From a virus (taxonomy: Duplodnaviria; Caudoviricetes), in the IMG/VR virus record IMGVR_UViG_2828058034_000001, positions 2,054 to 66,053 of that record: DNA of 64,000 bases; one strand, given 5' to 3'. Below the pieces are notes generated by a model. The model did no database searches and was not told where the DNA came from. It was given only the letters and a program-made list of their open reading frames with translations. A program made the position numbers and the translations under genes. Positions within the stretch are counted from its first letter, which is position 1. Each line of letters opens with the position of its first letter. Below are positions 4,984 to 23,140 of this stretch, one piece after another.

Positions 4984-5192
4984 TGCGCGTGCATGCCATG
5001 CAAGGCGACACCGTCGACCTGCTGTGCTGGCGCCACCTGGGCAGCACGGCCGGCTTGGTCGAGCGCACCTACCTCCTCAATCCCGGCCTGGCCGAACTGG
5101 GCGCCGTGCTGCCGCATGGCACGCCAGTGAAGTTGCCCGAGGTAACCACCACCACAGCGGCGATGACGCCGCTCGTGCAGCTATGGGACTGA
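4983..5192 (+). CDS. Tail protein gpX
   Basis: MRVHAMQGDTVDLLCWRHLG...NPGLAELG; TGATG coupling to gpL. Confidence 0.92.
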   Translation: MRVHAMQGDTVDLLCWRHLGSTAGLVERTYLLNPGLAELGAVLPHGTPVKLPEVTTTTAAMTPLVQLWD

Positions 5193-5196
5193 CCTG

Positions 5197-5553
5197 ATGA
5201 CCGAACCCACCTCCGTATCGAGCGGCTTTTTGATCGCCACCGGTGTGGGCCTTGCCTCCGTGCTGCCCGGCATCGACGGCGACGCGCTGATCGGCGCCTT
5301 TGCCGGCGGCGCGCTGTTCGTGGTGTCCGCCGCCAAGCAACCGCTGCTGGCGCGGCTGATCTATTTCCCGGTGAGCGTGATCGCCGGCTATCAGCTGGCG
5401 CCGGAGCTCCTGCGCTGGTTGCCGATCAAGTCCAGCGGCGTGGCGGCCTTCGCCAGCGCGGCGTGCGCCATCACGGTGACGCTGGGCCTGATCGAAAAGA
5501 GCAAGTCCTTCGACTTTTCCTTCCTACGCCGTGGAGGTCCGCCCAGTGCATAG
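5197..5553 (+). CDS. Putative holin
   Basis: Three hydrophobic segments, GAFAGGALFV motif, first gene of lysis cassette. Confidence 0.75.
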   Translation: MTEPTSVSSGFLIATGVGLASVLPGIDGDALIGAFAGGALFVVSAAKQPLLARLIYFPVSVIAGYQLAPELLRWLPIKSSGVAAFASAACAITVTLGLIEKSKSFDFSFLRRGGPPSA

Positions 5554-5821
5554 CCTGGTCACCGTCCTGACGTTGATGGCCTCGCTCGCCATCTGCGTCC
5601 GCCTGCTTACCTACCACCGGCCCGTCGATGCGCGCCATCGACGCGGCGCGGGCTGGTGCGCGTGGCTGCTGATCGCCAGCACCGGCGGTCAAGCGCTGCA
5701 CATCCTGCTGGCCGGCGCCGGCTCGCAGGTCAGTCTTTGGCACCTGGGCACGTTGATCGTGCTGGCGGTGCTCACCTACCGCGCCCAGGGCAATGTGGCG
5801 CGCATCCTCAAGGTCGATTGA
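5546..5821 (+). CDS. Second membrane lysis protein (holin/antiholin-like)
   Basis: Multi-TM, between holin and endolysin; GTG start at 5546; ends GNVARIL. Confidence 0.7.
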   Translation: MHSLVTVLTLMASLAICVRLLTYHRPVDARHRRGAGWCAWLLIASTGGQALHILLAGAGSQVSLWHLGTLIVLAVLTYRAQGNVARILKVD

Positions 5822-6459
5822 TGTTCACCGATACCCAGCTCGCCTCGATCATGCAGTGCTCCGCGCAACGCGCACAGCGCTGGCACGGCCCACTGCTTGC
5901 CGCCGCCAACCGCTTCGGCATCACCACCAAGCGCCGCGCCGCGCATTGGCTCGGCCAGGTCGGTCACGAAAGCCTGAGCCTGTCGCGCATGGAAGAAGGG
6001 CTGACCTACACCACCAGCGCTCGACTGTTGGAGGTGTTTGGCGCGCGGATCACACCTGCCCAGGCGCCCAAGTTCCTGCGCAACCCGGTCGGCCTGGCCA
6101 ACTTCGTCTACGCCGACCGCTTGGGCAATGGCAACGAAGCCAGCGGCGATGGCTATCGCCACCGGGGCCGCGGCCCGATGCAGCACACCTTCCGTGGCAA
6201 CTACCGCCGTATCGGTGAGCTGATCGGCCTGCCCGTCGAAGACCAGCCCGACCTGTTGCTGCAGATCGAGCCAAGCGCACTGGGCGCGGCAGCGTACTGG
6301 CACGACAACGGCCTCAACGCGCTGGCCGATACGGGGGACGTGCTGGGTCTGGGCCGCAAGATCAACCTGGGCAACGTACGCGCCAAGCGCTTGCCGGAAG
6401 GCCACAGCGATCGCGTCACGCGCACGCAGCGCGCCCTGCAGATTCTGGGCGTCAGCTGA
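5821..6459 (+). CDS. Glycoside hydrolase family 19 endolysin
   Basis: WLGQVGHES, GNGNEASGDGYRHRGRGPMQHTFRGNY motifs. Confidence 0.92.
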   Translation: MFTDTQLASIMQCSAQRAQRWHGPLLAAANRFGITTKRRAAHWLGQVGHESLSLSRMEEGLTYTTSARLLEVFGARITPAQAPKFLRNPVGLANFVYADRLGNGNEASGDGYRHRGRGPMQHTFRGNYRRIGELIGLPVEDQPDLLLQIEPSALGAAAYWHDNGLNALADTGDVLGLGRKINLGNVRAKRLPEGHSDRVTRTQRALQILGVS

Positions 6460-6947
6460 TGGTCACGCGCCTGATCATCCTGCTGGCGCTTATTGCAGTG
6501 CTCGTCGGTGGCTGCGTGTGGCAGGAGCGGCGCGTCAGCGCCGCGCAGAAAGATCACGATGCCGCGCTGCAGGCCAAGCGCCAGGCCGAGGCGGAACGCG
6601 ACAGCGCCAAAGGCTCCACCACCGTCGTGACGCAGTACGTCGACCGCGTGCAGATCGTGCGCGAGGCCGGCGCCACCATCACCCGCGAGATCCCGATCTA
6701 TGTCACCCAGAAAGCAGACGCTGCTTGCGCTGTCCCTGCTGGCTTTGTGCGGCTGCACGACGCCGCCGCCTCGGGCCACCCTGCCGGGCCGCCCACCGCA
6801 GATCCTGATGCACCGGCCGCCGGCATTACGCTCTCTGGCATTACCGGCACCGTCGCCGACAACTACACCAGCTGCCACGCCACCGCCGCGCAGCTGAGCG
6901 CGCTGCAGGACTGGATCGATCTGCATCTGCCGGCAGCGGCGCCATGA
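6459..6947 (+). CDS. Rz-like inner-membrane spanin (LysB)
   Basis: N-terminal TM, TVVTQYVDRV, CAVPAGFVRLHDAAA, C-terminal Cys/QLSALQDWI. Confidence 0.85.
   Translation: MVTRLIILLALIAVLVGGCVWQERRVSAAQKDHDAALQAKRQAEAERDSAKGSTTVVTQYVDRVQIVREAGATITREIPIYVTQKADAACAVPAGFVRLHDAAASGHPAGPPTADPDAPAAGITLSGITGTVADNYTSCHATAAQLSALQDWIDLHLPAAAP
6700..6897 (+). CDS. Rz1-like outer-membrane spanin lipoprotein embedded in Rz
   Basis: Signal peptide LLALSLLALCGC lipobox followed by Pro-rich mature part, in an alternative frame of Rz. Confidence 0.75.
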   Translation: MSPRKQTLLALSLLALCGCTTPPPRATLPGRPPQILMHRPPALRSLALPAPSPTTTPAATPPPRS

Positions 6948-7363
6948 TCAAGCCAGCCAGCCTGCGCGCGCATCTGGTGGCGGCACTGCCCGACCTGGCA
7001 CGTGATGCTGACCGGCTGCTGGTGTTCATCGACGCCGGCAGCCTGGTCAGCACGTTCCAGCCGGGGCTGTCGTTCGAGTACCAATACACGCTCAACCTGA
7101 TCGTGACCGACTACGCCGGCCACCCGGACAGCGTGATGCTGCCGCTGCTGGAATGGGTGCAGGCCAATCAGTCCGAGCTGCTGTCCAACCCCGCACGCCG
7201 TGGCGACATTGCCTTCGAGGCCGACATCCTCGCCAACGATGCGGTGGATCTGTCGATCAAGCTGCCGCTGACCGAACGGGTGGTCGTGACGGCGAAGGAC
7301 GGCGGCGGCTACGACATCACCCATGCACCCGAGCCGGTGATCGATCCGACATGGATGACTTGA
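6944..7363 (+). CDS. Tail completion protein gpR
   Basis: MIKPASLRAHL, LSFEYQYTLNL, LSIKLPLTERVVV. Confidence 0.93.
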   Translation: MIKPASLRAHLVAALPDLARDADRLLVFIDAGSLVSTFQPGLSFEYQYTLNLIVTDYAGHPDSVMLPLLEWVQANQSELLSNPARRGDIAFEADILANDAVDLSIKLPLTERVVVTAKDGGGYDITHAPEPVIDPTWMT

Positions 7364-7806
7364 CCGCACTGGAGACCTGGGCTGCACCGTTGCTAGCACG
7401 CCTGCAAGAGGGCGAACGACTCAAGTTGGCCCGCAAGATCGGCACCGCGTTGCGGCGCTCGCAAAGCCAGCGCATCGGCAAGCAGCAGGCACCGGACGGC
7501 ACTCCCTACGCACCACGCAAGCAGCAACTGCGGGATAAGGCGGGCAGAGTCAAAAGCAAGAAGATGTTTGCCAAGCTGCGGCAGGCCAAGTACTTCAAGG
7601 TCAGCGCCAGCCCTAACCTGGTGAGCGTGGGATTCATGGGGCGCGTATCGCGCATCGCACGTGTGCATCAAGAGGGACTAACCGAGCAAATTCGATCTGA
7701 AGGGCCGAAGGCGCGCTACGAAAAGCGCATTTTGCTAGGTCTCACAAACAAGGACTTAGCGAACATCCGTGACGTCCTGATCACGCACGTGATTCCTGGT
7801 CTCTGA
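7287..7806 (+). repeat. Direct repeat copy 1 (3' end of gpR + gpS)
   Basis: Aligns with 9477-9990 at offset 2190; high identity to about 7685, diverged afterwards. Confidence 0.95.
7351..7806 (+). CDS. Virion morphogenesis protein gpS (copy 1)
   Basis: SQSQRIGKQQAPDGTPYAPRK, KMFAKLR, IARVHQEG. Confidence 0.92.
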   Translation: MDDLTALETWAAPLLARLQEGERLKLARKIGTALRRSQSQRIGKQQAPDGTPYAPRKQQLRDKAGRVKSKKMFAKLRQAKYFKVSASPNLVSVGFMGRVSRIARVHQEGLTEQIRSEGPKARYEKRILLGLTNKDLANIRDVLITHVIPGL

Positions 7807-8001
7807 CGATCCCCCAAATGACCTGGTGCTGGGCCAAGTCTGAGGACAATAACAACTCTGTTATCAAAGCAAAGGTTGGCTGATCTCTGCCCTACGTTCA
7901 CAGCCTAAGAAATTTGTTGACATCCCGTGAAGGATATGTGATCAATATTGAACGCAAACTTCACTTTATATTTCATTTTTAAACTAAGTCATGGAGGGCT
8001 A

Positions 8002-8889
8002 GTGAAAAAGATTTACATTTTTTCTATCGCGGCCATTATCGCGCTAGGGTTTTTTTCCTTATTAATATTTAACCGCGGCCAGGGCCACAGCCAGCTGACT
8101 GGTAAAAATGAGAGTGTCGAGAATACAGAGCGCAAGGATGACCCATCAAACGAGGCAGCTGTTGTCGCGCGGCAGCCTTCAAATTGGGCGTCTAAACCAT
8201 CCTCGGAAATCGACCGTGATTTTAATGAGCTGAAGAGTCGCGCGGAAACAGGAGACCCTATAGCTCAACGGCAACTTGCCGAAACCTACGAGCGATGCTC
8301 TATCTATAGCGTCTCACCTGAAAATTATGCAAAAACTTTAGATGGTTTTGCGAAGATAAAGAACGAAAATAAGTCACGTTATGAAGAAATAAAGAAGAGG
8401 ACTTCGCATTATTGCAGCGCTATCGATGGCGGAAATATAATTCCTAGCTCAGCTTCTGAGCTTTGGTATGCAGAAGCTGCAAAAAATGGAGACCTCATCG
8501 CTCAGTTAAAAACCGCAGCACATGCTTCGGTACCGTCGAGCGCTTATAAGGGATTATTAGAGGAAACCCTGAAGAGCAAAGATCCTGAGGCCATGTTCGC
8601 TGTTGACGAAATGCTGGCCAACGCTAAAGGCGAGATTGACCTTGGCAACTACTCACCTACTTCTGGTGGAAATTATTCAGAGTATTCTTGGGCGCTAGCT
8701 GCTTGTGAAGCGGGTGCTGATTGCGGGCCTGGCTCGTATCGAATGGATTCAATGTGTGTGAATTTTGGCGTTTGCGATTCAGCCAACTACAAAGATCTTA
8801 TTAGAAAACACTTCGTCCCACCGAGTCAGTTGAAAGTTATTGACAAAGATATCGAGAGAATCAAATTACTTTCTAATAATTCAAAATAA
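8002..8889 (+). CDS. Membrane-anchored/exported Cys-rich protein with Sel1-like helices (cargo)
   Basis: GGAGG then GTG at 8002; N-terminal TM; AETGDPIAQRQLAETYERC and WYAEAAKNGDLIAQ Sel1-like motifs; WALAACEAGADCG; AT-rich. Confidence 0.75.
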   Translation: MKKIYIFSIAAIIALGFFSLLIFNRGQGHSQLTGKNESVENTERKDDPSNEAAVVARQPSNWASKPSSEIDRDFNELKSRAETGDPIAQRQLAETYERCSIYSVSPENYAKTLDGFAKIKNENKSRYEEIKKRTSHYCSAIDGGNIIPSSASELWYAEAAKNGDLIAQLKTAAHASVPSSAYKGLLEETLKSKDPEAMFAVDEMLANAKGEIDLGNYSPTSGGNYSEYSWALAACEAGADCGPGSYRMDSMCVNFGVCDSANYKDLIRKHFVPPSQLKVIDKDIERIKLLSNNSK

Positions 8890-8900
8890 AATGGACTTAC

Positions 8901-9368
8901 ATGACTACCGTGAAGAAGAGTTTTTCCAAGACTGCATGGATACTAGCACTACTATTGGCAAGCCTCACCGCTATAGCCGCCACGATCACAATTCGAGCTG
9001 GTGACGCTCCGTACAACCAAGTTCCTGTAGCGCAGGGCATTACAGTCTTGCATGAATCAGAACTTAGAGTTGCTGCGCTCTTCGGTCTTTCCGGTGCATA
9101 CAGAATACTTCATGGACCCGCCTCTCTCCCACGAGGAACTACATTCAAAGTTTATTACTCTGACATGTCGAGTGAGGATGCGACAGTAGCTTGTGTCGGA
9201 GGTACGGTTTGCGTCATCCCGGTTAATGGAACACAGCGTCGAGATGACGGAACTCCGATTCGCGGTGGCGGTAATGGTAACGGCGGCAGTAACGGCGGCA
9301 GTGGCGGCGGCACGCCTCCGCCTGGTGGCGGAGTTGTAATCGTTGGACCTCCAACACACGAACCGTAA
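8901..9368 (+). CDS. Small secreted protein with Gly-rich C-terminal linker (cargo)
   Basis: Signal peptide WILALLLASLTAIA; CVGGTVC; GGGNGNGGSNGGSGGG tail ending GGVVIVGPPTHEP. Confidence 0.75.
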   Translation: MTTVKKSFSKTAWILALLLASLTAIAATITIRAGDAPYNQVPVAQGITVLHESELRVAALFGLSGAYRILHGPASLPRGTTFKVYYSDMSSEDATVACVGGTVCVIPVNGTQRRDDGTPIRGGGNGNGGSNGGSGGGTPPPGGGVVIVGPPTHEP

Positions 9369-9414
9369 TAGTTTAGAGACGTGTAAAGAATGATTTTCGA
9401 AATATTTTTGTCAG

Positions 9415-9444
9415 GCCGCCCTGAGTAAGGGCGGCTTTTTTTTC
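9415..9444 (+). terminator. Rho-independent terminator
   Basis: GCCGCCCT-gagta-AGGGCGGC followed by T8. Confidence 0.9.
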
Positions 9445-9476
9445 CAATAGCCTAGGTTCTCTTAATAATTATGTGA

Positions 9477-9990
9477 TGACGGCGAAGGACGGTGGCGGCT
9501 ACGACATGAACCATGCGCCCGAGCCGGTGATCGAACCGACATGGATGACCTGACCGCACTGGAGACCTGGGCCGCACCGCTGCTGGCGCGCCTGCAGGAT
9601 GGTGAGCGGCGCAAGCTGGCACGCAAGATCGGCACCGCGTTGCGGCGCTCGCAGAGCCAGCGCATCGGCAAGCAGCAAGGACCCGAAGGCACACCGTATG
9701 CGCCGCGCAAGGAACAGCTGCGGGATAAGTCTGGCAGAGTCAGACGCAAGAAGATGTTTGCAAAGCTGCGGCAAGCCAAGTACTTCAAGGTCAGCGCCAG
9801 CCCTGACCAAGTGAGCATGGGATTCATGGGGTGCGTATCGCGCATTGGCCGCGTGCACCAAGAGGGACGGACCGAACAGGTGAGGCCCGGCGGACCACGA
9901 GCACGATACGGCGCGCGTGTGTTGTTGGGTTTTTCCCAGGACCATCGACAACTAGTGCAGGACCTGTTGCTGAATCAGCTCAGCGGATAG
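9477..9990 (+). repeat. Direct repeat copy 2 (3' end of gpR + gpS)
   Basis: tgacggcgaaggacgg...atggatgacctgaccgcactggagacctgg matches 7287 onward. Confidence 0.95.
9541..9990 (+). CDS. Virion morphogenesis protein gpS (copy 2, intact frame)
   Basis: MDDLTALETWAAPLLARLQ identical to copy 1; divergent C-terminus. Confidence 0.88.
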   Translation: MDDLTALETWAAPLLARLQDGERRKLARKIGTALRRSQSQRIGKQQGPEGTPYAPRKEQLRDKSGRVRRKKMFAKLRQAKYFKVSASPDQVSMGFMGCVSRIGRVHQEGRTEQVRPGGPRARYGARVLLGFSQDHRQLVQDLLLNQLSG

Positions 9991-10073
9991 CCATCTTGAG
10001 ATACCGTCGCGGTGCAAACAATACGGTCGTTTGATTGATTCCGCGATAGCCAGCACATTCATCAATGAAATTT

Positions 10074-10102
10074 TTGACGCCGCAGAGAAGAGCGAATAGC
10101 GT
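10074..10102 (+). promoter_or_regulatory. Candidate sigma70 promoter for cargo gene
   Basis: TTGACG-17 bp-TAGCGT upstream of 10144. Confidence 0.5.
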
Positions 10103-10143
10103 ATCACTGCCCCCAACGGATGGATCAGCAGAGACGCGGCCAA

Positions 10144-11064
10144 ATGAGCGAACAGTATTTATATCTGCTACCCAACAAGGAAGGGACTGCCTTCAAGATT
10201 GGAGTTGCATTCCATCCCATGATCCGCAGCACCCGTCTTCCTCAAGCCATTGACCACGAGAAAAGTTTTCAGGTCCCTATGACTTCAGGATCTGCCCTCA
10301 AGGTCGAGAAGGTCTTGCATATCCTCTTCAAAGACAATTCTTTTCCGATGCCTCATGGCGCAGGTTACACAGAGTGGTTCGCGATTGAAGCACTTGACGA
10401 TGTGTTGAAATTCCTCGAAGACCAGAGGAGCCGCCTTGGTGTAGGCGCACCTGAGCGCATCCCGGTTAGGATAGAACGGCCCACCCAAACAAAGGCACAA
10501 GATTATTCGCTGGATGAAAGGCGGCAACTGCGCCGTGAAGCTGCCGAACAAAGGTTCTTCAAAAGAAGAGAGCTGGCGATCGAGATCAACCGCGAAGCGA
10601 TTCAAGTTTTCAAGAAAGTAATAGGCGAATGGGTAGAGGAAGACGCCATCATTGGCACCTTGATTGATACGAATTCCGAGCGTTCCCACGCATACATTTA
10701 TCTAGAATCTAATTCCGAAAAAGCATCTGCGTGGGCACATACGCTCATTTCAAATGGACTGATCATAGAAGGCCGCAAATCATCCGGGCAAGTAAACTTT
10801 TGCACTGGTGTTTTCCACGAACCCAAAATGGGACTCTCAGAACTAAACTTTTCTGCAGATATGTTCACACCCTGTGATTTTTCTGAGGATGATATTCCCG
10901 GGTTAGAAGATTTGAGGCGTCTCGTAGACTTGCATTTACCAGTAGCCAGCGGAGATTCAAGGGATACGCTCCTGAAGATCAGGGGTAATTTCAAAATTCT
11001 TAGAGAAAAATTTCGCGAAGAATTCTGGGAAGAGTGGAGGAAGGGATCGGGCGGCGTTTGGTAG
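10144..11064 (+). CDS. T5orf172/GIY-YIG-like nuclease domain protein with unknown C-terminal domain (cargo)
   Basis: YLYLL...FKIG...R...VEKVLHILF...GYTEWF motif set; AT-rich. Confidence 0.75.
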   Translation: MSEQYLYLLPNKEGTAFKIGVAFHPMIRSTRLPQAIDHEKSFQVPMTSGSALKVEKVLHILFKDNSFPMPHGAGYTEWFAIEALDDVLKFLEDQRSRLGVGAPERIPVRIERPTQTKAQDYSLDERRQLRREAAEQRFFKRRELAIEINREAIQVFKKVIGEWVEEDAIIGTLIDTNSERSHAYIYLESNSEKASAWAHTLISNGLIIEGRKSSGQVNFCTGVFHEPKMGLSELNFSADMFTPCDFSEDDIPGLEDLRRLVDLHLPVASGDSRDTLLKIRGNFKILREKFREEFWEEWRKGSGGVW

Positions 11065-11146
11065 CATTTGAGCCAGCGTCGTAGGCGCCAGGCAATCGGG
11101 CACGGTAAGATCATAGTTATTACTTCGGTGATACGTTCGCCCCAGA

Positions 11147-11165
11147 TGTATCAGTCAGTTTTACA
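11147..11165 (+). promoter_or_regulatory. Candidate late-activator site upstream of gpJ
   Basis: TGTAtcagtcagttTTACA, same spacing as 1686 and 15417. Confidence 0.5.
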
Positions 11166-11233
11166 AAGCAAATTCATTGGCTCGATCACGAGAACCAGCG
11201 ACCCTGATCTGGTCCTCTCTTTCTTTCCGAGCA

Positions 11234-12124
11234 ATGGCATCTTTTACCGCAGTCGATCTATCAAAGCTGCAGGCGCCAGACCTGATCGAGGCTTTGGATT
11301 TTGAGACGATCTTCGCTGAGGCCTTTGCCCAGTTCCGCCGGCTCATGCCTGAGTTCTCGGCACTCACTGAAGCAGACCCGGTCTACAAGCTCCTGCAGCT
11401 GTTCGCAGCCCGCGAGCTGCTGATTCGCCAGCGCGCCAACGACAAGGCGCAGCAGACCATGTTGGCCTTCGCCACCGGCACCAACCTCGATCACCTGGGC
11501 GCACTATTCGGTGTCGCCCGCCTGGTGCTCGATCCGGGGCTGCCGGAGAACGGCATTGCACAGACCCATGAGTCGGACGTGGACTTCCGACGCCGGATAC
11601 AGCTGGCGCCGGAGGGCTTCAGCGTTGCTGGCCCCGAGGGCGCGTACATCTATCACGCGCTGAGCGCAGCGGCCGATGTCATGGACGCCAGTGCCACCAG
11701 CCCCGCACCCGGGCAAGTGCTGGTAACTGTCCAGTCGCGCACCGGCGATGGCACGGCTCCACAGGCGTTGTTGGACCAGGTCGCTTCGATTCTCACCAAC
11801 GATGACGTGCGCCCGCTGACCGACAGTGTCACGGTCCAGAGCGCCCAGGTCGTCCCGTATGCCATCCGTGGGCGCGTCTACACCTATGCCGGCCCTGACT
11901 CGGCAGTGGTCATGCGTGAGGCGCTGCGCAGCCTGCGGGCCTATCTTGCCGAGGCACACCGCATCGGCCGCGACGTTCCTGAATCCGCCATCAAGGCCAA
12001 GCTGTTCGCCGATGGTGTGCAGCGCATCGAACTGGACTCGCCTGCAGCGGACATCCGGATCAGCCGCACGCAGGCTGCGTACTGCACCTCGATCGACATC
12101 GTGCACGCCGGCATCGATGAGTAG
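11234..12124 (+). CDS. Baseplate protein gpJ
   Basis: VDLSKLQAPDLIE, LAFATGTNLDHLGA, FSVAGPEGAY. Confidence 0.95.
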   Translation: MASFTAVDLSKLQAPDLIEALDFETIFAEAFAQFRRLMPEFSALTEADPVYKLLQLFAARELLIRQRANDKAQQTMLAFATGTNLDHLGALFGVARLVLDPGLPENGIAQTHESDVDFRRRIQLAPEGFSVAGPEGAYIYHALSAAADVMDASATSPAPGQVLVTVQSRTGDGTAPQALLDQVASILTNDDVRPLTDSVTVQSAQVVPYAIRGRVYTYAGPDSAVVMREALRSLRAYLAEAHRIGRDVPESAIKAKLFADGVQRIELDSPAADIRISRTQAAYCTSIDIVHAGIDE

Positions 12125-12662
12125 TTCCCCGCTGCCACCCAATGCAACACCGATGGAACGCGCCCTGGCCGCCGTCACGCAGCGCCTGGAAGCAATCCCG
12201 TTGCCGTACCCAGACCTGTGGAATCCAGACACTTGCCCAGCCGGCCATCTGCCTTGGCTGGCGTGGACGCTTTCAGTCGACGACTGGAAGGCCGACTGGA
12301 GCGATGCGGTCAAGCGCTCGCGCTTGCGTAGCGCCATGGCGATCCAGCGACGCAAGGGAACAGCCAACAGCGTGCGCATGGTCGTCGAGTCGTTCGGCGG
12401 TGCGGTCGCCATCCGCGAGTGGTGGCAGACCGAGCCGCGCGGCCAGCCGCACACCTTCGAGCTGGCGCTAACGCTGACCGGTGCCGATGGACAAAGCGCC
12501 AGCGCCCGGTTCGTAGAGGAAGTCATCGCCGAGGTCGAGCGCACCAAGCCCGTGCGCTCGCATTTCAGCTTCACCCAAGGATTCCAGGCCGAAGCCCGAC
12601 TCAACGTCGTGGCGCGCGGCAGAACCACCTTGTTCCTGCGCCTGCAGTGCAAGGCGAGCTAG
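12117..12662 (+). CDS. Baseplate/tail protein gpI
   Basis: LPPNATPMERALA, LWNPDTCP..HLPWLAW..SVD, RKGT. Confidence 0.94.
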   Translation: MSSSPLPPNATPMERALAAVTQRLEAIPLPYPDLWNPDTCPAGHLPWLAWTLSVDDWKADWSDAVKRSRLRSAMAIQRRKGTANSVRMVVESFGGAVAIREWWQTEPRGQPHTFELALTLTGADGQSASARFVEEVIAEVERTKPVRSHFSFTQGFQAEARLNVVARGRTTLFLRLQCKAS

Positions 12663-12671
12663 AGAGCACAC

Positions 12672-14177
12672 ATGCCCGGACTCAAACTCAAGATCACCAC
12701 CGCCGGCCGCCAAGCGTTGGTCAATGCCAAGCAGACCGGCACACAGGCGGTGACCATCGCCGCCGTCGGTTTGACCAGCGCAGCGTTCGTGGCCGATGCC
12801 GAGCTCAAGGCGCTGCCGTCCGAGATCAAGCGCCTGACCACCATCGGCGGGTCGGTCACCGCCAAGGACACGATCCACGTGTCGGTGCGCGACGAATCCA
12901 ATGGCGTATACAGCTGCTACGGGTTCGGCCTTTACCTGGCCGATGGCACGCTGTTCGCCGCCTATGGTCAGCCCGCGTTGCTGGTGGAGAAGTCTGGCGC
13001 CGCCTCGGTGCTACTGGCGATTGACGTGGTGCTGGCCGACGTAGATACCGCACAGATCACGTTCGGCGATACCAACTTCACCGACCCAGCGGCAACCGTC
13101 GACGTGCCGGGCGTGGTTCGCCTGGCCACCGACGCCCAGGCCATCGCGGGCATCGACCGGGAGCGGGCGGTGTCGCCCGCCAACTTGCTTGCGTCACTGG
13201 ACCAGCGGCTGGGCGAAATGGGGCCGACCGAATTCATCAAGGAGCTGCTGTCGCGCCCCACGGCGGCGACTGCCCGCAGCCTCCTGGGCATTCGCACGGC
13301 TGCACTCAGCGACGCCGGTCACGGCAATGGCCTGGATGCGGACACACTGGATGGCCGCCAGGGCGAGTGGTACCGCGATTTCCGCAACATGCTCAACGTG
13401 CCGCAGTCGTTCCTGCTGCCTGGCCAGATCGTCGTCATGGCATCGCTGTACCCGCCCAATGGCCTGCTGGTCTGCGATGGTGCTGCGATCTCACGCGCCA
13501 AGTACCCTGCCCTGTTTGCCGCCATTGGCACGGTGTACGGTGCGGGTGACGGCAGCACCACCTTCAACGTGCCCAAGATCAAGGACGGCACAGTCATCAC
13601 CCATACCAGCGTGGCGACGGCGGTGGGTTCGTACGGCGCCGGCCAGGTCATCTCTCATGCGCATGGCGCCACTGCAGCCGCCGTGGGCGACCACGCGCAC
13701 TACACAGCGCTCGGCGCAGCCGGTATTCACGCACACGGTGCCAGCAGTAACCCAGCTGGCGACCATGCCCATGGCGCGTGGACCGATACGCAGGGCTGGC
13801 ACGGCCACAGCGGCAGCACCAGCGCCTCCGGCGACCACCAGCACCCGGGCGTGATCCCATCAGGCGCCGTGAACGGATACGGCGTTTTCCGCGAGCGCGA
13901 CAACGATGCGGCACCTTCAGATGGATGGACAGGTGCCGGCGGCAACCACGCCCACAGCTTCGGGACGGATGGCGCGGGCAACCACGCACACAACATCGGC
14001 ATGAACGGCTCCGGCAACCACACTCACGGCATCGGCATCGCCGAGGGCGGCAATCACGTCCACGTGGTGGACCACCGCGGCGCCGGCGCCCACGACCACG
14101 CCATTACCGTCAATACCGCCGGCGGCGAAGACAACCTGCCGGCCGGTCTGCGCATGACCTACTGCATCGCTTATTGA
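12672..14177 (+). CDS. Tail fibre protein gpH with collar domain and HxH repeats
   Basis: P2 gpH N-terminus, GEMGP/NGLDADTLDG, collar PNGLLVCDGAAISRAKYPALFAAIG, 11 HxH motifs. Confidence 0.92.
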   Translation: MPGLKLKITTAGRQALVNAKQTGTQAVTIAAVGLTSAAFVADAELKALPSEIKRLTTIGGSVTAKDTIHVSVRDESNGVYSCYGFGLYLADGTLFAAYGQPALLVEKSGAASVLLAIDVVLADVDTAQITFGDTNFTDPAATVDVPGVVRLATDAQAIAGIDRERAVSPANLLASLDQRLGEMGPTEFIKELLSRPTAATARSLLGIRTAALSDAGHGNGLDADTLDGRQGEWYRDFRNMLNVPQSFLLPGQIVVMASLYPPNGLLVCDGAAISRAKYPALFAAIGTVYGAGDGSTTFNVPKIKDGTVITHTSVATAVGSYGAGQVISHAHGATAAAVGDHAHYTALGAAGIHAHGASSNPAGDHAHGAWTDTQGWHGHSGSTSASGDHQHPGVIPSGAVNGYGVFRERDNDAAPSDGWTGAGGNHAHSFGTDGAGNHAHNIGMNGSGNHTHGIGIAEGGNHVHVVDHRGAGAHDHAITVNTAGGEDNLPAGLRMTYCIAY

Positions 14178-14774: not shown

Positions 14775-15344
14775 CTACTTCCCATACACGGTGCAAGCAG
14801 CCCAGCGAATCTGCACTCCACCTTTTGATTTGAAATGCTCGCATATCGCATGAAGCGTGCGCGGATTTTTCGATAGGACAGTGTAGGAAGTGTCCTTAGG
14901 CTTATCGATTACTGAAAAACCTGGCTCATTGTAGGCAAACAAGGTGAAGTTTGGACATTTCTCACCCTGAGCATACACCCAGCGCGTTTTAGCATTAACA
15001 CTTACATCCCCATCCGGATCAGTGTCGTACTCACCTGCTTTTTTATCCCACAAAATGGGCAAACGTGCTGGCAAAAGATCATTGGAAGCAATTGCAATCC
15101 CATGTGCATCATCCAATCCGACACCTACCCCCTGATATATGACGATCTGGATATCTTTTGGAACCACGAACTCGCCATAGACGCCTCCACTCTTCACCCA
15201 TTCCCCATGCCCCTCGCAGACCACAACATCCCATCCTTGTGGAACTGCGGGACGAGTCAAGCGTGAGCTCACTCTTAGTGGCTTTTTATCATCCCCGTTA
15301 GGCGGATTAAAACCGCCCTTTCCGTAAACTGCTGACATTTCCAA
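14775..15344 (-). CDS. Stv-like domain protein (cargo, opposite strand)
   Basis: VVCEGHG...FVVPKDIQIVIY...G..L...; C-terminal RWAAC; AT-rich, antisense to tail operon. Confidence 0.6.
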   Translation of the reverse strand: MEMSAVYGKGGFNPPNGDDKKPLRVSSRLTRPAVPQGWDVVVCEGHGEWVKSGGVYGEFVVPKDIQIVIYQGVGVGLDDAHGIAIASNDLLPARLPILWDKKAGEYDTDPDGDVSVNAKTRWVYAQGEKCPNFTLFAYNEPGFSVIDKPKDTSYTVLSKNPRTLHAICEHFKSKGGVQIRWAACTVYGK

Positions 15345-15435: not shown

Positions 15436-15481
15436 AGATACCTGTTGTGACTTGCTCCTCACGGTCACCGACCATGACTGC

Positions 15482-16045
15482 ATGGGCAACGCATCCTCCG
15501 CACTGAGTAACGCCATTCGCCTCGGCACTGTGGCCGAGGTGAATCTGTTCACCGCACGATGCCGCGTGCAGGTCGGCGAGATGCTGACCGACTATCTGCC
15601 TTGGGTTGTCACGCTGGCCGGCACCACGATCATCTGGTCGGCACCGGCAATTGGCGAACAGGTCGTGGTGCTATCGCCGGCCGGCGACCTGGCCGACGGC
15701 CTGGTGCTACGCGGTCTGTACTCAGACCAATTCGCAGCGCCTGCCGCATCTGACACGCTGCACGTGCTGCGCTTTGCCGATGGCGCGCAGATCCACTACG
15801 ACACCGATGCGCACGCGCTGCAGGCCACGCTACCCAGCGGCGGGACCGCGTCCATCACCGCCGATGGCGGCATCACGCTCAACGGTCCGGTGACCGTCAA
15901 CGGCGAGACGACGCTCAACGGCGACACCACGATCGCCGGTACCGCGACTGCGACCACCGATGTCGTGGGCGGCGGAATCAGCCTCAAGAACCACAAGACC
16001 ACCGGCGTAACCGCCGGCAGCGCGCTCAGCGGCGGCCCACAGTGA
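15482..16045 (+). CDS. Baseplate spike gpV
   Basis: IRLGTVAEV, WSAPAIGEQVVVLSPAGD, ISLKNHKT. Confidence 0.94.
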   Translation: MGNASSALSNAIRLGTVAEVNLFTARCRVQVGEMLTDYLPWVVTLAGTTIIWSAPAIGEQVVVLSPAGDLADGLVLRGLYSDQFAAPAASDTLHVLRFADGAQIHYDTDAHALQATLPSGGTASITADGGITLNGPVTVNGETTLNGDTTIAGTATATTDVVGGGISLKNHKTTGVTAGSALSGGPQ

Positions 16046-16401
16046 TCGGCGTCGATGCGACCACCGGCCGAGTGATCGAGGGCGAGCAGCACCTGGCCCA
16101 GTCGATCGCCTGCATCCTCACCACGCCCATCGGCACGCGTGAGCAGCGCCGCGACTTTGGCTCGCTGCTGCCCGAGCTGATCGACCAGCCATTCAACGGC
16201 GCCACCCGCACGCTGCTGTATGGCGCCACCGCCACCGCATTGATGCGCTGGGAGCCGCGCCTGCGCCTGACCCGCGTCGACCTGGTCGTCGGTGATGCGC
16301 CTGGCAGCTTTGTGCTGACGATCGAAGGCGAACGCACCGACGTTGCCCCCGCCAATGCGCGCTCGCGCATGACCATCCCGCTCCGCTTCCGCTCGTCCTG
16401 A
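16042..16401 (+). CDS. Baseplate protein gpW (gp25-like)
   Basis: HLAQSIACILTTPIGTR..RRDFGS, RWEPRL. Confidence 0.94.
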   Translation: MIGVDATTGRVIEGEQHLAQSIACILTTPIGTREQRRDFGSLLPELIDQPFNGATRTLLYGATATALMRWEPRLRLTRVDLVVGDAPGSFVLTIEGERTDVAPANARSRMTIPLRFRSS

Positions 16402-18618: not shown

Positions 18619-19203
18619 ATGGCGGCCTCTGACAATCTACGCCTGCAGGTCATCCTAGCCGCCGTCGACCGCGCCACCGGCCCGTTCCGGCGCGTGTTGA
18701 GTGGTAGCCGCGGTGTTGCCACCGCACTGCGCAATCAGCGTGACGCGCTGCGGCAGCTCAACAGCCAGCAACGCGATATCGGCGCCTACCGCGAGCAGGT
18801 CGCGATGGCGCAGCGCGCCAAGGCCGCGCTCGACGCGCAGCGACAATCGGTGCGCACGCTTGCCCAACAGATGAAAACGGCCGGCACGCCTACGGCGGCA
18901 ATGAATGCCGAGTTCGAGCGGGCCGTTCGCACCGCACGCGAACTCAAGGCAGCACACGGCGCGCAGGAGGCCGGCTTACAGCGCCTGCGCGGCCGGCTGG
19001 AGACGGCCGGAATCAGCACCCGCGAGCTCGTCACGCACGAGCGCCGCCTGCGTGGCGAGATCGAGAGCACCAACGCCGCCATGCGCGCCCAGCAGCAGCG
19101 CCTGGTGGCGATCGACACTGCCCAGCGTCGCAGCGCCCGCATCCAGAGCGCTGGCCTGCAGGCGAGCGCCTACGGTGCCGGCATGGCGTTCGCCGGCCAG
19201 CGC
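18619..19203 (+). pseudogene. Truncated tape measure protein gpT (N-terminal ~195 codons)
   Basis: LRLQVILAAVDRATGPFR start typical of P2 T; homology-like coiled coil stops at ~19203. Confidence 0.85.
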
Positions 19204-19600
19204 TGTCACACGCCCGCTAACTTCCAGTGCCGGACCCGGCGAGCAGGCTATCACGCCCGCCGGAACTGGCTTTGACATCGCTGCAGGCAAGGACTGCAGC
19301 GCGATCGCCACGCTCTACGTTACGCACGATGCGGTCGTGGTGGTGGCAGCGCTGACCATGGGGCACCACAGCAGCGCCACACAGCGGTGGGAGCGCCGCC
19401 GCGGCCCCGGCAAGGGCTGGAAGTTGATCAGCGGCCCGCAACTGTTCACCAGCGAAGCCGACCAGATCAGCAATGCGCTGGCCGACTTCATGGACGATCT
19501 GGACTTTCCGTTTGACCTGGCCAACATGCTGCCGCGCCGGCCCACAGCTGCCGCCGAAGCCGCGATCGCCGCTGCTGCGCTGGAGGTGGCCCATGCTTAA
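19199..19600 (+). pseudogene. Early-region hypothetical gene lacking its start codon
   Basis: Frame SAVTRPLTSSAGPGEQAITPAG...EVAHA begins at deletion junction, coupled to 19593. Confidence 0.55.
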
Positions 19601-19769
19601 TTTGGCCCTGATCTTGATCGCGCCAACGATCGGCGGTGCGCTGCTGTATCGGCTGTGGCTCACACGCCCGGCGCGCACTGCACACATCGGGCTGGCCGTG
19701 GGGCAGATCCCACAGCGCCTGCGCCGTCGCCGCGCTATGGCCGTGCGCCGGGCGGTGACCCATGGCTGA
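19593..19769 (+). CDS. Small membrane hypothetical protein
   Basis: GGAGG RBS, N-terminal TM, overlapping-gene coupling. Confidence 0.6.
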   Translation: MLNLALILIAPTIGGALLYRLWLTRPARTAHIGLAVGQIPQRLRRRRAMAVRRAVTHG

Positions 19770-20037
19770 GTCGATTGTTGTTTGCAGCCCAATGGGTAGC
19801 GGTAAGACGCTCAACGCTGACGCAATCCGCCAGGCCTACGAGCTAAAACGCGTGGTCGAGTTGGATGAGCGACTGCAGCGCAAGGGGGACGACTGGCAGC
19901 TGGCCCAGCACGACGTGCTCATGTTGACCAATGACCGATTGCTGGCCGAACTGACGGCGCAGCGTCTGCGCATTGAAGTGGTTGCCATCGCCGATGCGCG
20001 TGTGCGTATCGGCTGTGCTTGGAGGTCGCCACGATGA
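19762..20037 (+). CDS. Small hypothetical protein with P-loop-like motif
   Basis: VVCSPMGSGKT; coupled start/stop. Confidence 0.65.
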   Translation: MAESIVVCSPMGSGKTLNADAIRQAYELKRVVELDERLQRKGDDWQLAQHDVLMLTNDRLLAELTAQRLRIEVVAIADARVRIGCAWRSPR

Positions 20038-20279
20038 CGCTCGATCGCGTGATTGCTGTGAGCCGAGCAGCGCAACACTACGGTGGCCCCGGCCCATTGT
20101 CGACGGGCGAGGCCTTGACCGCCGCATTGGTGCTCAACCGACACGACTGGCTTGCAGATATGGACTACACCATCGCTCAGGCGCTTGACCGGATTGACGA
20201 GGACACCATCGCGCACCTGCTCCAGGCAGAGCGTGCGATCGGCTGTGGCGCAGAAGCCGTGGAGGAACGCCCGCGATGA
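20034..20279 (+). CDS. Phage hypothetical protein
   Basis: ATGA overlaps on both sides; LSTGEALTAALVLNR. Confidence 0.65.
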   Translation: MTLDRVIAVSRAAQHYGGPGPLSTGEALTAALVLNRHDWLADMDYTIAQALDRIDEDTIAHLLQAERAIGCGAEAVEERPR

Positions 20280-20548
20280 CTCAACGCGAGATATCGCATG
20301 CCGAACCGCTTCCCGCCTGTAGGGCCGGTCACGCGGGCCGACACATCGTCGACAGCCGCCGTCTGCAGGCCGGTGGCGGGCATGCCATCGAATGCCGGTG
20401 TGGGCGCACCAAGAAGCACGCCGACTTCGCCCAGGCACTGGCCGAGTGGAAGCGTATGCACCGCATCCGCATGCCACGCCAGGTGGCGCCTGCCGACAGC
20501 AACGTGGTGCAACTCGGCCTGCGCCTGCGCGGAGGCGACAGCCGGTGA
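20276..20548 (+). CDS. Phage hypothetical protein (possible Zn-binding)
   Basis: LPAC..GH...IECRC; coupled. Confidence 0.65.
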   Translation: MTQREISHAEPLPACRAGHAGRHIVDSRRLQAGGGHAIECRCGRTKKHADFAQALAEWKRMHRIRMPRQVAPADSNVVQLGLRLRGGDSR

Positions 20549-20751
20549 GCAACGAGGACACGGAAGCGCACAGGCGCCAATGCGAAGCGCGCTACTGGCT
20601 GCGACAGGGATACACAGACGTCAGATCTGTCTCCCTGCTGCAGCAGCTGATCGCAGCCAAGCGCGGTGACCAGGCGGCGCTGGAGCTGCGCGACGAGATG
20701 CGCGAGCAATGGAGGAGCCGCCGGCAGTGGCAGCAGGAACAATTGCTATGA
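20545..20751 (+). CDS. Phage hypothetical protein
   Basis: GTGA/ATGA coupling; RRQCEARYWLRQG. Confidence 0.6.
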   Translation: MSNEDTEAHRRQCEARYWLRQGYTDVRSVSLLQQLIAAKRGDQAALELRDEMREQWRSRRQWQQEQLL

Positions 20752-20969
20752 CGGGGCGAATCCTGCATTTCGCAGACCTGCAGCGCATCTGTTCGCCGGA
20801 CGGCCCAGCCCCGCGCCTCTTGGTGGTCTGCCGCTGGGCGGACCGCGAGGGCATCCGCTACCGATATGACCGTAAGGGCAGGATCTGGACAACGATTGAC
20901 GCAGTGAACGCCGCGCTTGGCATAGCCGAGCCTGCGGCCAACCAAGAAAATGCCATGGAGCTGATCTGA
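20748..20969 (+). CDS. Putative excisionase (DUF4224-like)
   Basis: Small basic protein directly upstream of integrase; RWADREGIRYRYDRKGRIWTT. Confidence 0.6.
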   Translation: MTGRILHFADLQRICSPDGPAPRLLVVCRWADREGIRYRYDRKGRIWTTIDAVNAALGIAEPAANQENAMELI

Positions 20970-22153
20970 TGGGACGCGGTAGAAAACGGAAGTTCAACCC
21001 AGCTATTCCGGCACACATTGACCAGGCCGCACTGCCGCAAGGTGTGTATTGGGAGGATGGCCGCTGGTACATCATCGAGTCACATCCTGAGGGAGGCCGT
21101 CCTAGAAAAAGGACGGTCGCACACAAGCATTCGCGCCTCTCAGAACTTCATGCGATTGTGGAATGTGCACGGGGCGAGGTCGAAAGAGGCACTCTGGCCT
21201 TCTTGAATGAGCGCTTCCACCGATCCACCGAGTTCAAGGCGCTCGCGCCAGGCACTCAGAAGGACTACAAGCAAAGTGGCCGAGCAGCCTGCGCCTACGT
21301 GCTGAAAGACGGTAGCCAGCTTGGGCGAATGCAGGTGGCCCGGATCAATGTGCCTGCAATGCAGCGCTTGGTGGAGACGCTCGCAGCAGGGCGTGAGGCC
21401 ACTGCCATGCAGCCTGCAATCGAGCCGCGCCCAAGCAAGGCCAATCACGTGCTTCGCTACCTTCGTCGCCTATTTGGTTGGGGAATCCGGTTTGGGTTAT
21501 GCGAACACAACCCGGCCAAGGGCGTACGTCAGGCAAAGGAAGTGGCGGCTCACACGATGCCAGAGCAGGATGCCTTCACGGCGGTATTGCGGTTTGCACA
21601 GCAGCGCGCCACCTTCGAGGCGCACACCAAAGGTAGCGTGTCGCCATATCTGCATGCGGTGATGGTCCTGGCCTACAACCTGAGGCTGCGTGGGGCTGAA
21701 GTGACCGATCTCACTGACGCGCATGCCGGCGAGCAAGGCATCCTGGCGACGCGGCGAAAGGGCTCGCGCGACAACGTCACGCTCTGGAACGGAGAACTGC
21801 GCAGCGCGTGGGAGTGGCTGATTGAGTACCGCAGGCGGACTATGGCTGCGCACGAGCGGCCCATCCCCCTGAAGCCGGAACAGCGCCGGCTGGTCGTCAG
21901 CCAATCGGGCACGCCGTTGACAAAGTCAGCGCTCGACAGCGCGTGGCAACGCATGATCAGGCTCGCCATTCGGGAAGGCGTGATCGAAGAAGCCCAGAGG
22001 TTCAGCCTCCACGGGTTGAAGCACCGTGGCATCACCGATACGGAGGGCACTCTGGCTGACAAGCAAGAAGCTGCCGGCCACAAAACGCAGGAAATGACCC
22101 AGCGTTATTCGCACAACGTGCCAGTCGTAAAGCCGCCTCGCCGGACCTCGTAG
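20969..22153 (+). CDS. int: Tyrosine integrase of P2-like prophage
   Basis: LRLRGAE (R), SLHGLKHRG (HxxR), GHKT...RY catalytic motifs. Confidence 0.92.
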   Translation: MGRGRKRKFNPAIPAHIDQAALPQGVYWEDGRWYIIESHPEGGRPRKRTVAHKHSRLSELHAIVECARGEVERGTLAFLNERFHRSTEFKALAPGTQKDYKQSGRAACAYVLKDGSQLGRMQVARINVPAMQRLVETLAAGREATAMQPAIEPRPSKANHVLRYLRRLFGWGIRFGLCEHNPAKGVRQAKEVAAHTMPEQDAFTAVLRFAQQRATFEAHTKGSVSPYLHAVMVLAYNLRLRGAEVTDLTDAHAGEQGILATRRKGSRDNVTLWNGELRSAWEWLIEYRRRTMAAHERPIPLKPEQRRLVVSQSGTPLTKSALDSAWQRMIRLAIREGVIEEAQRFSLHGLKHRGITDTEGTLADKQEAAGHKTQEMTQRYSHNVPVVKPPRRTS

Positions 22154-22272
22154 GGCGCGGCGTTGCCCCGATCACTTGGCCGTGGAACAGCGTTCCCGGC
22201 CATTATTTTCCCGGGAATTTTCCCGGAAGCACAAAAAAAGCGCCTGCGGCGCTGTCTAAGTTGCTGATTGTA

Positions 22273-22323
22273 ATGGTGGGCCGTGATGGATTCGAACCAT
22301 CGACCAAAAGATTAAAAGTCTTC
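22273..22323. repeat. att core: 51-bp copy of tRNA-Lys 3' part
   Basis: Identical to 63235-63285. Confidence 0.97.
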
Positions 22324-22496
22324 GGATGCCACTTACTGCCGCAATGGTTTCTGGCCATTCAGCGCTCCGCATTTAGCAGGAATGCTAACGATTTAATCCC
22401 GCGTTTGCGCGGCCTTATAGCGCGATTGCGGAGCGCGGTATCTGCTCCTGCGGCGAGTCTCAGCGTATGAGTCTGCTGCTGTCCATCCTGGGGCCC

Positions 22497-22883
22497 ATGC
22501 CACCAAATCCACTGCCTCCCGCCTGCCGCTGGGTCTCCGTGACCGCAGATAGCGCGCTCATGCAATTCAACTACGGGACCGTGGCGCACATCTCTGGCGG
22601 GACGGTCTGGCTTTCCTGGCGCGGATCCCGAATATCGGCGCCACAGACCGGCAGCATTCGGCAATCGATGATGTTCGCGGAGCGGTGGATCGCCGCGCGC
22701 ACCGGCCTGCCAGGGGTTAGGAAGGCACCCAGGAAGACCGGCGCGGGCGAGTGCATCGCTTGGAAGGCGGTGCAGCGCGCGGCCACCCGCGCCATCAATG
22801 TGGATATAGCCAATTGGGGGCCAACCGACGCTGAGATAGATGCGATGGAAGCAATCGGCTCAACGACGATCACATGGGGATAG
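22497..22883 (+). CDS. Phage hypothetical protein at att-proximal end
   Basis: MPPNPLPPACRW...FAERWIAAR; start uncertain (22467 alternative). Confidence 0.55.
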   Translation: MPPNPLPPACRWVSVTADSALMQFNYGTVAHISGGTVWLSWRGSRISAPQTGSIRQSMMFAERWIAARTGLPGVRKAPRKTGAGECIAWKAVQRAATRAINVDIANWGPTDAEIDAMEAIGSTTITWG

Positions 22884-23140
22884 AAGCCGGCTCGGCGCTG
22901 CTCAGGCGCCACGCGGGTGAGCGGCCCATGGCCCCGCGTCCGGCAGTTGCAGATTGGCACTGCAGTGGGATTCAGCATATCGGGCTGAACCGCACCAAGG
23001 GGTGGGGTTTTTCCTCACCGAGGCTGTGCGCCACGCCTGCAAATGAACGTTTTTTCCGGCGCGCGCGCCAAGCATCTTGGTGACGCGCCGAGATGATCTC
23101 GCGCCGCCGGCGCTGACCGGCGCAGCACATTCGGAGATCC

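Follow-up and report, generated by a model that had tools for sequence, protein, structure and literature searches.

The window analysed here, a 64,000-nucleotide stretch of a 66-kb IMG/VR provirus record (IMGVR_UViG_2828058034_000001), contains a P2-like Xanthomonas prophage in which two copies of the tail gene gpS, each followed by its own AT-rich cargo, lie ahead of the baseplate gene gpJ. The gene order is lysB, gpR, gpS1, cargo 1a, cargo 1b, a terminator, a gpR fragment (gpR'), gpS2, cargo 2, gpJ, gpI, gpH, gpG, a Stv-domain gene on the minus strand, gpV, gpW, FI and FII. This is a phage cargo hotspot, a known kind of locus; what is new is that the boundaries of exchange are embedded in coding sequence and that cassettes are, on rare occasions, stacked. 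We consider it likely that a cassette hotspot with flanks in coding sequence, together with a single illegitimate join, explains the arrangement seen in the window.

We propose that in P2-like prophages of the Smp131 type in Xanthomonas the S|J junction, where the late operon terminated by gpS ends and that of gpJ begins, serves as a cargo hotspot without a recombinase. The unit of exchange would comprise the last ~40–45 codons of gpS, AT-rich cargo together with its terminator, the gpJ operon's late promoter and the first ~50 codons of gpJ. Cassettes would be replaced by ordinary homologous recombination, with left crossovers in gpR and the 5' part of gpS and right crossovers in gpJ and gpI. 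The coding ends of gpS and gpJ would be too diverged to recombine and would thus stay linked to the cargo.

Probable cassette exchange at the gpS–gpJ junction

Relatives were gathered by anchoring on gpS, giving 21 loci from species-representative genomes, among which the close relatives were all Xanthomonas, and 80 loci from IMG/VR; R, S, J, V and W and the cargo proteins were mapped onto each locus (loci carry the prefix L below). The layout R-S-(variable)-J-I-H-G-V-W-FI is found in all Xanthomonas-type loci that are long enough, and the synteny of lysB-R-S through to FI is seen in ~100 loci. Seventy-three unique units were compared pairwise by segment. They contain 34 clusters of gpS 3' alleles, 36 clusters of proximal cargo and 47 cargo protein families, with eight units empty. 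The gap between S and J ranges from 84 bp to 5.1 kb; the largest follows the gpS of L073 (10001–10840), whose stop is lost and whose frame continues to 279 aa.

Across 79 unique lysB-R-S sequences, nucleotide diversity is 0.07–0.13 in gpR and 0.10–0.17 in the gpS 5' part, and rises to 0.32–0.55 from window position ~7666, which corresponds to gpS codon ~105. The hypervariable 3' tail of gpS1 (7666–7806, plus strand; GC 0.52) thereby forms part of cassette 1. The initial annotation had suggested that each cargo takes its gpS 3' end along and that cassettes are swapped by crossover in the conserved 5' part, and both proposals are supported by the comparison of gpS C-terminal alleles with cargo type over the gpS–gpJ intervals. 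Co-segregation was assessed by categorical comparison and by a partial Mantel test; rank correlations over all pairs gave no information because unrelated cargo dominates the pairs. The gpS 3' end is 91.6% identical in pairs sharing the same proximal cargo (n = 87 pairs) versus 63.9% in pairs with different cargo (n = 2133), while the corresponding values are 92.2% and 89.9% for gpR and 90.4% and 84.5% for the gpS 5' part. The association holds in pairs with divergent backbones (gpR below 93% and gpS 5' part below 90% identity), where the gpS 3' ends are 87.5% identical with the same cargo (n = 45) versus 63.9% with different cargo. Conversely, in two pairs with near-identical backbones and different cargo the gpS 3' identity is 64.9%. 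At a gpS 3' identity threshold of 90%, 50 pairs have the same cargo and one has different cargo, and the partial Mantel correlation of gpS 3' similarity with shared cargo, controlled for gpS 5' part and gpR, is r = 0.617 (p = 0.001).

The positions of the left crossovers were located by change-point analysis, which was confined to R-S. In 23 of the 47 same-cassette pairs the mismatch rate drops within R-S from 7–13% to 0–3.6%, with breakpoints at 7028, 7223, 7365, 7432, 7456–7465, 7554, 7570, 7584, 7618–7622 and 7642; the crossovers are therefore scattered across the conserved part up to the variable tail. Linkage on the right side is weaker than on the left, the first 150 nt of gpJ being 88.6% identical with the same distal cargo versus 79.1% with different distal cargo. 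The near-isogenic locus L084 has a backbone 98–100% identical to that of the window over large stretches; homology stops exactly at 7685 and resumes at 11234, and identity declines toward the cassette from both flanks. Further support comes from a 550-nt contig in a 2017 rhizosphere metagenome. This contig has 16 mismatches to copy 1 over 7486–7620 and 19 to copy 2 over 9504–9668, with a single mismatch in its 7620–7863 part. The gpS1 tail and cargo 1 thus sit here behind a third gpS 5' allele and on a third backbone, which supports the central proposal of the initial annotation. The metagenome covers parts of the region at 2–5x, and neither junction of the array is covered.

The borders of the cassette are also marked by composition. 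Mean GC content at third codon positions (GC3) across units is 0.84 in gpR, 0.80 in the gpS 5' part, 0.53 in the gpS 3' end, 0.62 over gpJ nucleotides 1–150 and 0.80 over the remainder of gpJ; cargo GC is 0.49 across units and 0.46–0.49 overall, versus 0.62–0.66 in the backbone. Between cassettes, gpS amino-acid identity is 90% over residues 1–105 versus 57% in the tail. The ratio of nonsynonymous to synonymous substitution, 0.09 for the gpS 5' part, is 0.15 for the 3' end, and the tail is therefore constrained coding sequence and not a target of diversifying selection. The gpS tails read as old alleles locked to old cassette lineages. With cassette boundaries inside two essential tail genes and a sharp drop in GC3, the locus offers a clear natural setting in which to study the effect of linkage to a polymorphic site on essential neighbouring genes. 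One possibility is that the low GC3 of the gpS and gpJ ends results from the loss of recombination-associated GC bias. An extended version of this idea seems rather doubtful to us: that the low-GC3 ends of gpS and gpJ, far from being carried along passively, define a cassette system within the structural genes of Xanthomonadaceae P2-like phages, that selection for defence or virulence keeps dozens of ancient lineages, that the recombination-cold ends, having lost GC3 without biased gene conversion, act as fixed handles setting the sites of exchange, and that stacking builds multi-gene cassettes.

The stacked array of the window

A repeat search of positions 5000–14000 found a single long direct repeat, 7287–7586 and 9477–9776, at an offset of 2190 and with 88% identity. 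By alignment the repeat reaches ~7690/9880, with divergence beyond; over 7294–7690 the identity to the partner copy is 86.9%, the longest exact runs being 32, 30, 23 and 22 nt. Within it lie the final ~25 codons of gpR and gpS up to codon ~113; copy 1 is at 7287–7690 and copy 2 at 9477–9880, both on the plus strand. The duplication of the gpR 3' end with gpS, at this offset, is as the initial annotation had described it; the copies, at 87–88% identity, are not near-identical as it had stated. Its further observations that the gpS 3' ends diverge in DNA while keeping their motifs, and that distinct AT-rich cargo follows each copy, both stand. The 3' parts of the two gpS copies share 59.6% DNA identity and keep the protein core GPxARY..R.LLG, and the DNA that follows is dissimilar in sequence, with a GC content of 46% in the cargo 1 block and 48% in the cargo 2 block versus 62–66% in the backbone.

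Both gpS copies are full-length. Copy 1 (7351–7806, plus strand; 151 aa) lies in its native context and overlaps the gpR stop, and copy 2 (9541–9990, plus strand; 149 aa) is intact; they match PF05069 over residues 1–147/148 (E = 9e-40 for copy 1 and 1.1e-39 for copy 2), scoring 136 bits in both cases versus a gathering cut-off of 24.3. The two proteins are 74% identical, with differences almost all after residue 113. Upstream of copy 1, gpR (6944–7363, plus strand), a tail completion or terminator protein that forms the left backbone flank, matches the full PF06891 model (E = 5e-49) and phrog_65. Cassette 1 is closed by a strong rho-independent terminator (9413–9447, plus strand; called at 9413–9437 in the terminator scan) with a 10-bp stem, seven GC pairs and a run of eight T residues. 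The gpR' fragment (9477–9553, plus strand), the last ~25 codons of the gene, is placed by alignment and by tblastn (85% to the gpR C-terminus). The interval between gpS copy 2 and gpJ contains cargo 2 alone.

It is likely that the join linked the right end of cassette 1, just past the terminator, with codon ~115 of gpR in another phage, which carried cassette 2. The borders of homology place this putative illegitimate junction at 9448–9477 on the plus strand. Homology to gpR starts at 9477, and on the other side homology to L065 and L040, in which the terminator is conserved after the homologues of cargo 1b, ends shortly past the terminator; in these two relatives a late-promoter segment comes next, and cassette 1 is without it. 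The 33-mer spanning the junction had no match in the genome-contig collection. The outcome would be a redundant inner gpR'-gpS2 without a late promoter that has begun to drift.

The assembly of the region was examined with independent k=31 contigs. The full stretch occurs in one run only, which is probably the sample of the source isolate and is stored as contigs. These break only at the 32-nt exact run common to both copies, and their depths are 353x for 6900–7461, 675x for the 32-mer, 309x for 7434–9651 and 362x for 9624–11400, as expected for a path A-r-B-r-C. A single contig spans the cargo 1-to-gpR' junction, and no alternative path through a second backbone exists. A misjoin through gpS of two P2-like prophages, or of a prophage and a small circle, could be suspected from the shared 32-nt run at which the contigs break, and from the fact that the record is a single isolate assembly, found in full only in what is probably the run it came from. 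Such an artefact is, however, very improbable, since A, r, B and C are the only nodes of the graph and r has a depth of 675x versus 309–362x for the others, which leaves no second prophage backbone; the copies, being 13% diverged, are unlike collapsed or expanded repeats and let ordinary reads resolve the path, and analogous stacking occurs in the unrelated record L052. The check for misassembly that the initial annotation had called for thus shows no sign of one, and the contigs fit a true tandem array.

Phylogenetic placement makes it probable that the two gpS copies are not sisters, and this speaks for an illegitimate join of two phage lineages. Copy 1 falls in a clade supported at 98/97 with L025, L003, L028, L038, L037, L040 and L065, from which copy 2 is excluded. 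The identity of copy 1 to L025 is 0.924 and that of copy 2 to L033 is 0.897, whereas the copies share 0.869 with each other. The alternative that R'-S was duplicated in tandem within one phage, with later divergence and replacement of one gpS 3' end and its cargo, is unlikely to our judgement. It would be compatible with the weak placement of copy 2 (82/71) and with the approximately unbiased (AU) test described below, but the clade of copy 1, the greater closeness of each copy to other loci than to its partner, and 27 synonymous codon differences in 113 codons, which point to long separate histories, all argue against it, as does the inner unit of L052, which matches a cassette that circulates singly.

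The inner copy appears to be redundant, starting to drift and presumably not expressed. gpS2 has seven substitutions at columns at least 93% conserved, including R98C, and ranks first of 73 (median one), while gpS1 has two, a typical number. No late-promoter dyad is found ahead of gpR'-gpS2, which instead lies ~45 nt past the strong terminator.

Stacking is rare, and 99 of the 102 sources scanned have a single gpS. Among ~100 loci L052 is the one clear further case. A full gpS and a peptidase cargo come first in it, followed by a 93-nt piece of lysB fused to a gpS without codons 1–9, a second cargo and gpJ. The distal unit of L052 aligns collinearly (86%) with the cassette that L026 and L033 carry singly, the matching gpS 3' allele included; there too, then, the stack was made of two cassettes that circulate independently. 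The inner gpS of L052 is broken, being an N-terminally truncated open reading frame that has lost its stop, and the junctions are unlike those of the window. Two possible further cases, L020 (a 3.6-kb contig with inverted ends that reads R...R-S) and L030 (where a gpR' fragment follows gpJ at the end of a contig), are unreliable. Stacked arrays therefore recur, a point that the initial annotation had put up for testing, but only as one clear and two doubtful cases, and with junctions that differ each time.

These observations also bear on a view of the gpS repeat as a platform for reversible, integron-like accumulation of cassettes, selected for gathering defence genes. In the present array as in L052, each gpS copy does retain a distinct 3' allele tied to a distinct cargo; 2–4 of ~100 loci have stacked or partly duplicated structures; the exact runs of 22–32 nt could allow rare deletion; and the depth of the middle segment is ~13% below that of its flanks (309 versus 353/362), which may reflect loss in some cells or GC bias. 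We nevertheless regard such a platform as improbable. There is no recombinase between lysB and W and no repeated att-like element at the cassette borders, the junctions lie inside gpR here, in a lysB fragment with a 5'-truncated gpS in L052 and elsewhere in L020 and L030, and nearly all sources have one gpS. The inner copy is decayed in L052 and drifting here, behind a terminator and without a late promoter. Gain of a cassette needs an illegitimate join, and a deletion is not undone without a donor. Moreover, the only host seen is a defective prophage, free of packaging limits. Were the copies to recombine, cargo 1 could be deleted and a chimeric gpS left behind, but this would be rare and irreversible. 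The reversible accumulation put forward in the initial annotation is thus not upheld, as stacking is rare, the junctions are non-homologous and differ, no repeated site exists and deletion is one-way; its statement that no dedicated recombinase is involved agrees with the Pfam and PHROG scans of the genes from gpR to gpW, in which none was found. Stacking is a rare recombination accident with no dedicated mechanism, and we conclude that the array of the window is the scar of one illegitimate join, tolerated in, or older than, the decaying prophage. The stacked array shows that multi-gene islands can arise from single cassettes through occasional illegitimate joins.

Several points weigh against the explanation by cassette exchange and a single join. 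At the deeper level of cargo families, cargo does not predict nucleotide similarity of gpS 3' or gpJ 5' ends, the signal being saturated, and the sample of loci is non-random, with many from related strains. The eight empty alleles are also low in GC3 (0.61 in the gpS 3' end and 0.63 in the gpJ 5' end), even though they have no cargo. Single-cassette parents of either window cassette were not found, and scanning viral contigs for peptide words of cargo 2 and cargo 1a recovered nothing; the best gpS 3' matches to the window cassettes are 0.69–0.72 and the cargo homologues are at most 58% identical. In the AU test, treating the copies as sisters gives a log-likelihood difference of 37 (p = 0.099), and sisterhood is not formally rejected. 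Lastly, the k=31 contig graph is compatible with a deleted form plus a circle at equal abundance.

Cargo repertoire and comparison with known hotspots

Function scans were made on 36 cargo representatives. The cargo of relatives includes a retron-type reverse transcriptase (PADLOC RT-Toprim I-C, E = 4e-217); the probable carrier of this match is the RVT_1-bearing 586-aa protein of L064 (10369–12129). Also present are Shedu SduA (PADLOC, E = 2e-152), with a Pfam SduA_C domain in a 488-aa protein of L097 (10528–11994), and AbiU2 and PDC-S15. These genes agree with the remark of the initial annotation that cargo hotspots in P2-like phages are rich in anti-phage genes, although the cargo of the window itself has no PADLOC match. 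Host-interaction genes are found as well. A YopJ-family Ser/Thr acetyltransferase (PF03421, E = 3e-52) is encoded in L075 (10458–11726, minus strand) and also in L014 (X. hortorum), L083 and L086; YopJ is a family of type III effectors of plant pathogens, here carried on a P2-like prophage. A full-length methyl-accepting chemotaxis protein is encoded in L010 (10757–13036), a PAS histidine kinase and a GGDEF protein in L099 and L078, and an Amidase_3 protein in the L007 group. Further cargo comprises a trypsin-like peptidase, FRG and DUF3800 proteins and an insertion-sequence transposase. In addition, a third insertion site lies between lysB and gpR, where a 1.1-kb insert encodes a trypsin-like peptidase (L026, 8432–9594; L053); the same peptidase gene is the gpS-proximal cargo of L052 (10575–11422).

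The S|J locus thus has conserved syntenic flanks, many unrelated gene sets, recognised defence genes in the relatives and cargo with a GC content unlike that of the backbone, and it adds a very diverse cargo hotspot to the map of P2-like phages. In plant-pathogenic Xanthomonas this hotspot carries both anti-phage genes (retron, Shedu, AbiU2) and host-interaction genes (YopJ-family acetyltransferase, chemoreceptor, sensor kinases), and it is therefore a defined place to seek new defence and virulence cargo.

Cargo 1a (7948–8889, plus strand; likely true start 8002) encodes a 313-aa, Cys-rich protein predicted to be membrane-anchored or secreted. Its partner, cargo 1b (8901–9368, plus strand; 155 aa), has a signal-peptide-like N-terminus and a Gly-rich tail, as read from its sequence. 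Neither has a Pfam, PHROG, PADLOC or NCBIfam match. In a search of 5.8 billion proteins the homologues of cargo 1a were restricted to Xanthomonas and at most 58% identical, and in the protein atlas it appears from residue 19 on, in an unannotated family of secreted proteins. The two genes co-occur, always proximal to gpS, in five related loci (L018, L040, L065, L070 and L082). Cargo 2 (10120–11064, plus strand; likely start 10144) encodes a 314-aa protein with a T5orf172/GIY-YIG-like domain at residues 13–99 (PF10544, E = 7e-5) and a C-terminal part of no known kind. It belongs to a family of ~300-aa T5orf172/GIY-YIG proteins, with GIY-YIG/T5orf172 clusters in the atlas at 0.96, and has no function in PADLOC, NCBIfam or PHROG. 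Its homologues in the same 5.8-billion-protein search are 45–49% identical and confined to Xanthomonas, and in the related loci they are always proximal to gpJ (L008/L057, L063 and L068). Low-depth contigs of the rhizosphere metagenome are 98–100% identical to cargo 1a, cargo 1b, cargo 2 and the gpJ 5' end (7978–8128, 9009–9234, 10367–10779 and 11116–11400), and a close relative therefore occurs in the environment. In the phage database the region had no close DNA relative, gpR alone matching at ~70%.

The nearest equivalent in a well-known phage is the orf30 site of coliphage P2 at S|V, between the O and V late operons, which has the same position on the late map. The P2 record has the order S, terminator of the O operon, the nonessential orf30 on the opposite strand, the activator-binding site of P_V, and V, and the Xanthomonas S|J site is thus its positional equivalent. 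In Xanthomonas, gpJ lies downstream because V and W have moved (PMC3931495). The Xanthomonas site further differs from that of P2 in having ~36 cassette types and boundaries inside gpS and gpJ. In Smp131 the S–J site is an empty gap of 86 nt. In 80 loci of E. coli P2-like phages the S–V site is empty in 51, holds orf30 in 24 and another insert in five; gpS is 98–100% identical there whatever the occupant, so that the boundary lies outside gpS, with the qualification that this sample was picked by gpS similarity.

The hotspots named for P2-like phages in the available parts of the literature are old/tin (gpA–gpQ), Z/fun (gpG–FI) and a third near cI (PMC9122126; bioRxiv 10.1101/2024.10.15.618418). 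As presented there, these hotspots resemble S|J in being recombinase-free variable loci between conserved phage genes, with defence systems and morons (PMC9122126; 10.1101/2024.10.15.618418), and the classes of cargo, retron reverse transcriptases for example, overlap. The site of the window, between gpS and gpJ, differs in location from all of them. In the parts of these two sources that were available, the S|V–S|J junction is not among the P2 hotspots and ends of flanking structural genes that co-vary with cargo are not reported (PMC9122126; 10.1101/2024.10.15.618418).

The array resembles those of integrons in its tandem, unrelated cargo with related sequence ahead of each. It differs in having no IntI, attI, attC or shared promoter; its repeat is a duplicated structural gene, its junctions are irregular and it has two members. 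The repeat search returned only the R'-S direct repeat and short repeats at chance level, with no attC-like border element, and the borders in relatives are gradients inside coding sequence. A further parallel may be drawn with long-maintained polymorphic loci such as those for O-antigen or capsule, where homologous recombination in conserved flanks exchanges numerous old alleles and the adjoining coding ends become deeply diverged by linkage. The S|J locus differs from these in that essential phage tail genes form its flanks and it is carried by a temperate phage; its cargo may be under balancing selection.

Putative late promoters, neighbouring genes and the prophage remnant

Upstream of gpJ, a P2-type late-promoter-like dyad, TGTA-N11-TACA with ATTGGCT, is found as an exact match at 11147–11182 (plus strand), ~90 to 55 nt before the gpJ start. 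Most relatives, regardless of cargo, have this motif ahead of gpJ with unchanged spacing, and P2 has its annotated activator-binding site in the corresponding position. Near-matches precede gpO (1686) and gpV (15417). The window contains eight such dyads versus 3.7 expected, which is not above chance, and the three hits are meaningful by position only. A perfect TGTA-N11-TACA within the coding sequence of cargo 1b (9026–9044) is probably due to chance. Overall, sigma-70 and terminator scans were at chance level, the terminator of cassette 1 being the sole strong one.

Downstream, gpJ (11237–12124, plus strand; PF04865) has its first ~50 codons in the variable block, as judged from GC3 and from the identity of its 5' end. 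The genes V and W are present after G (15452–16401), the usual order of Smp131-type phages (PMC3931495), and gpJ therefore directly follows gpS in this group.

An AT-rich Stv-domain gene (14775–15344, minus strand; PF21527, E = 2e-10) lies between gpG and gpV, at the positional equivalent of P2 Z/fun. It had no PADLOC or NCBIfam match and is shared with L084 alone (99%), most relatives having a gap of ~90 nt at this site. A patch of lysB (6541–6630) is highly diverse among relatives, with a nucleotide diversity of 0.25–0.30 versus ~0.1 nearby.

Homology to four intact relatives ends at 19203, inside the tape-measure gene (18619–19203), and the remaining part of this gene, at least 1.85 kb, is found nowhere in the window. 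The tape-measure gene is truncated and the P2-like prophage is therefore defective. ARAGORN found no tRNA at 19000–24000. A second, unrelated prophage, which encodes a 1154-aa tail protein and contains further long open reading frames, adjoins the P2-like element on the minus strand (23500–63000).

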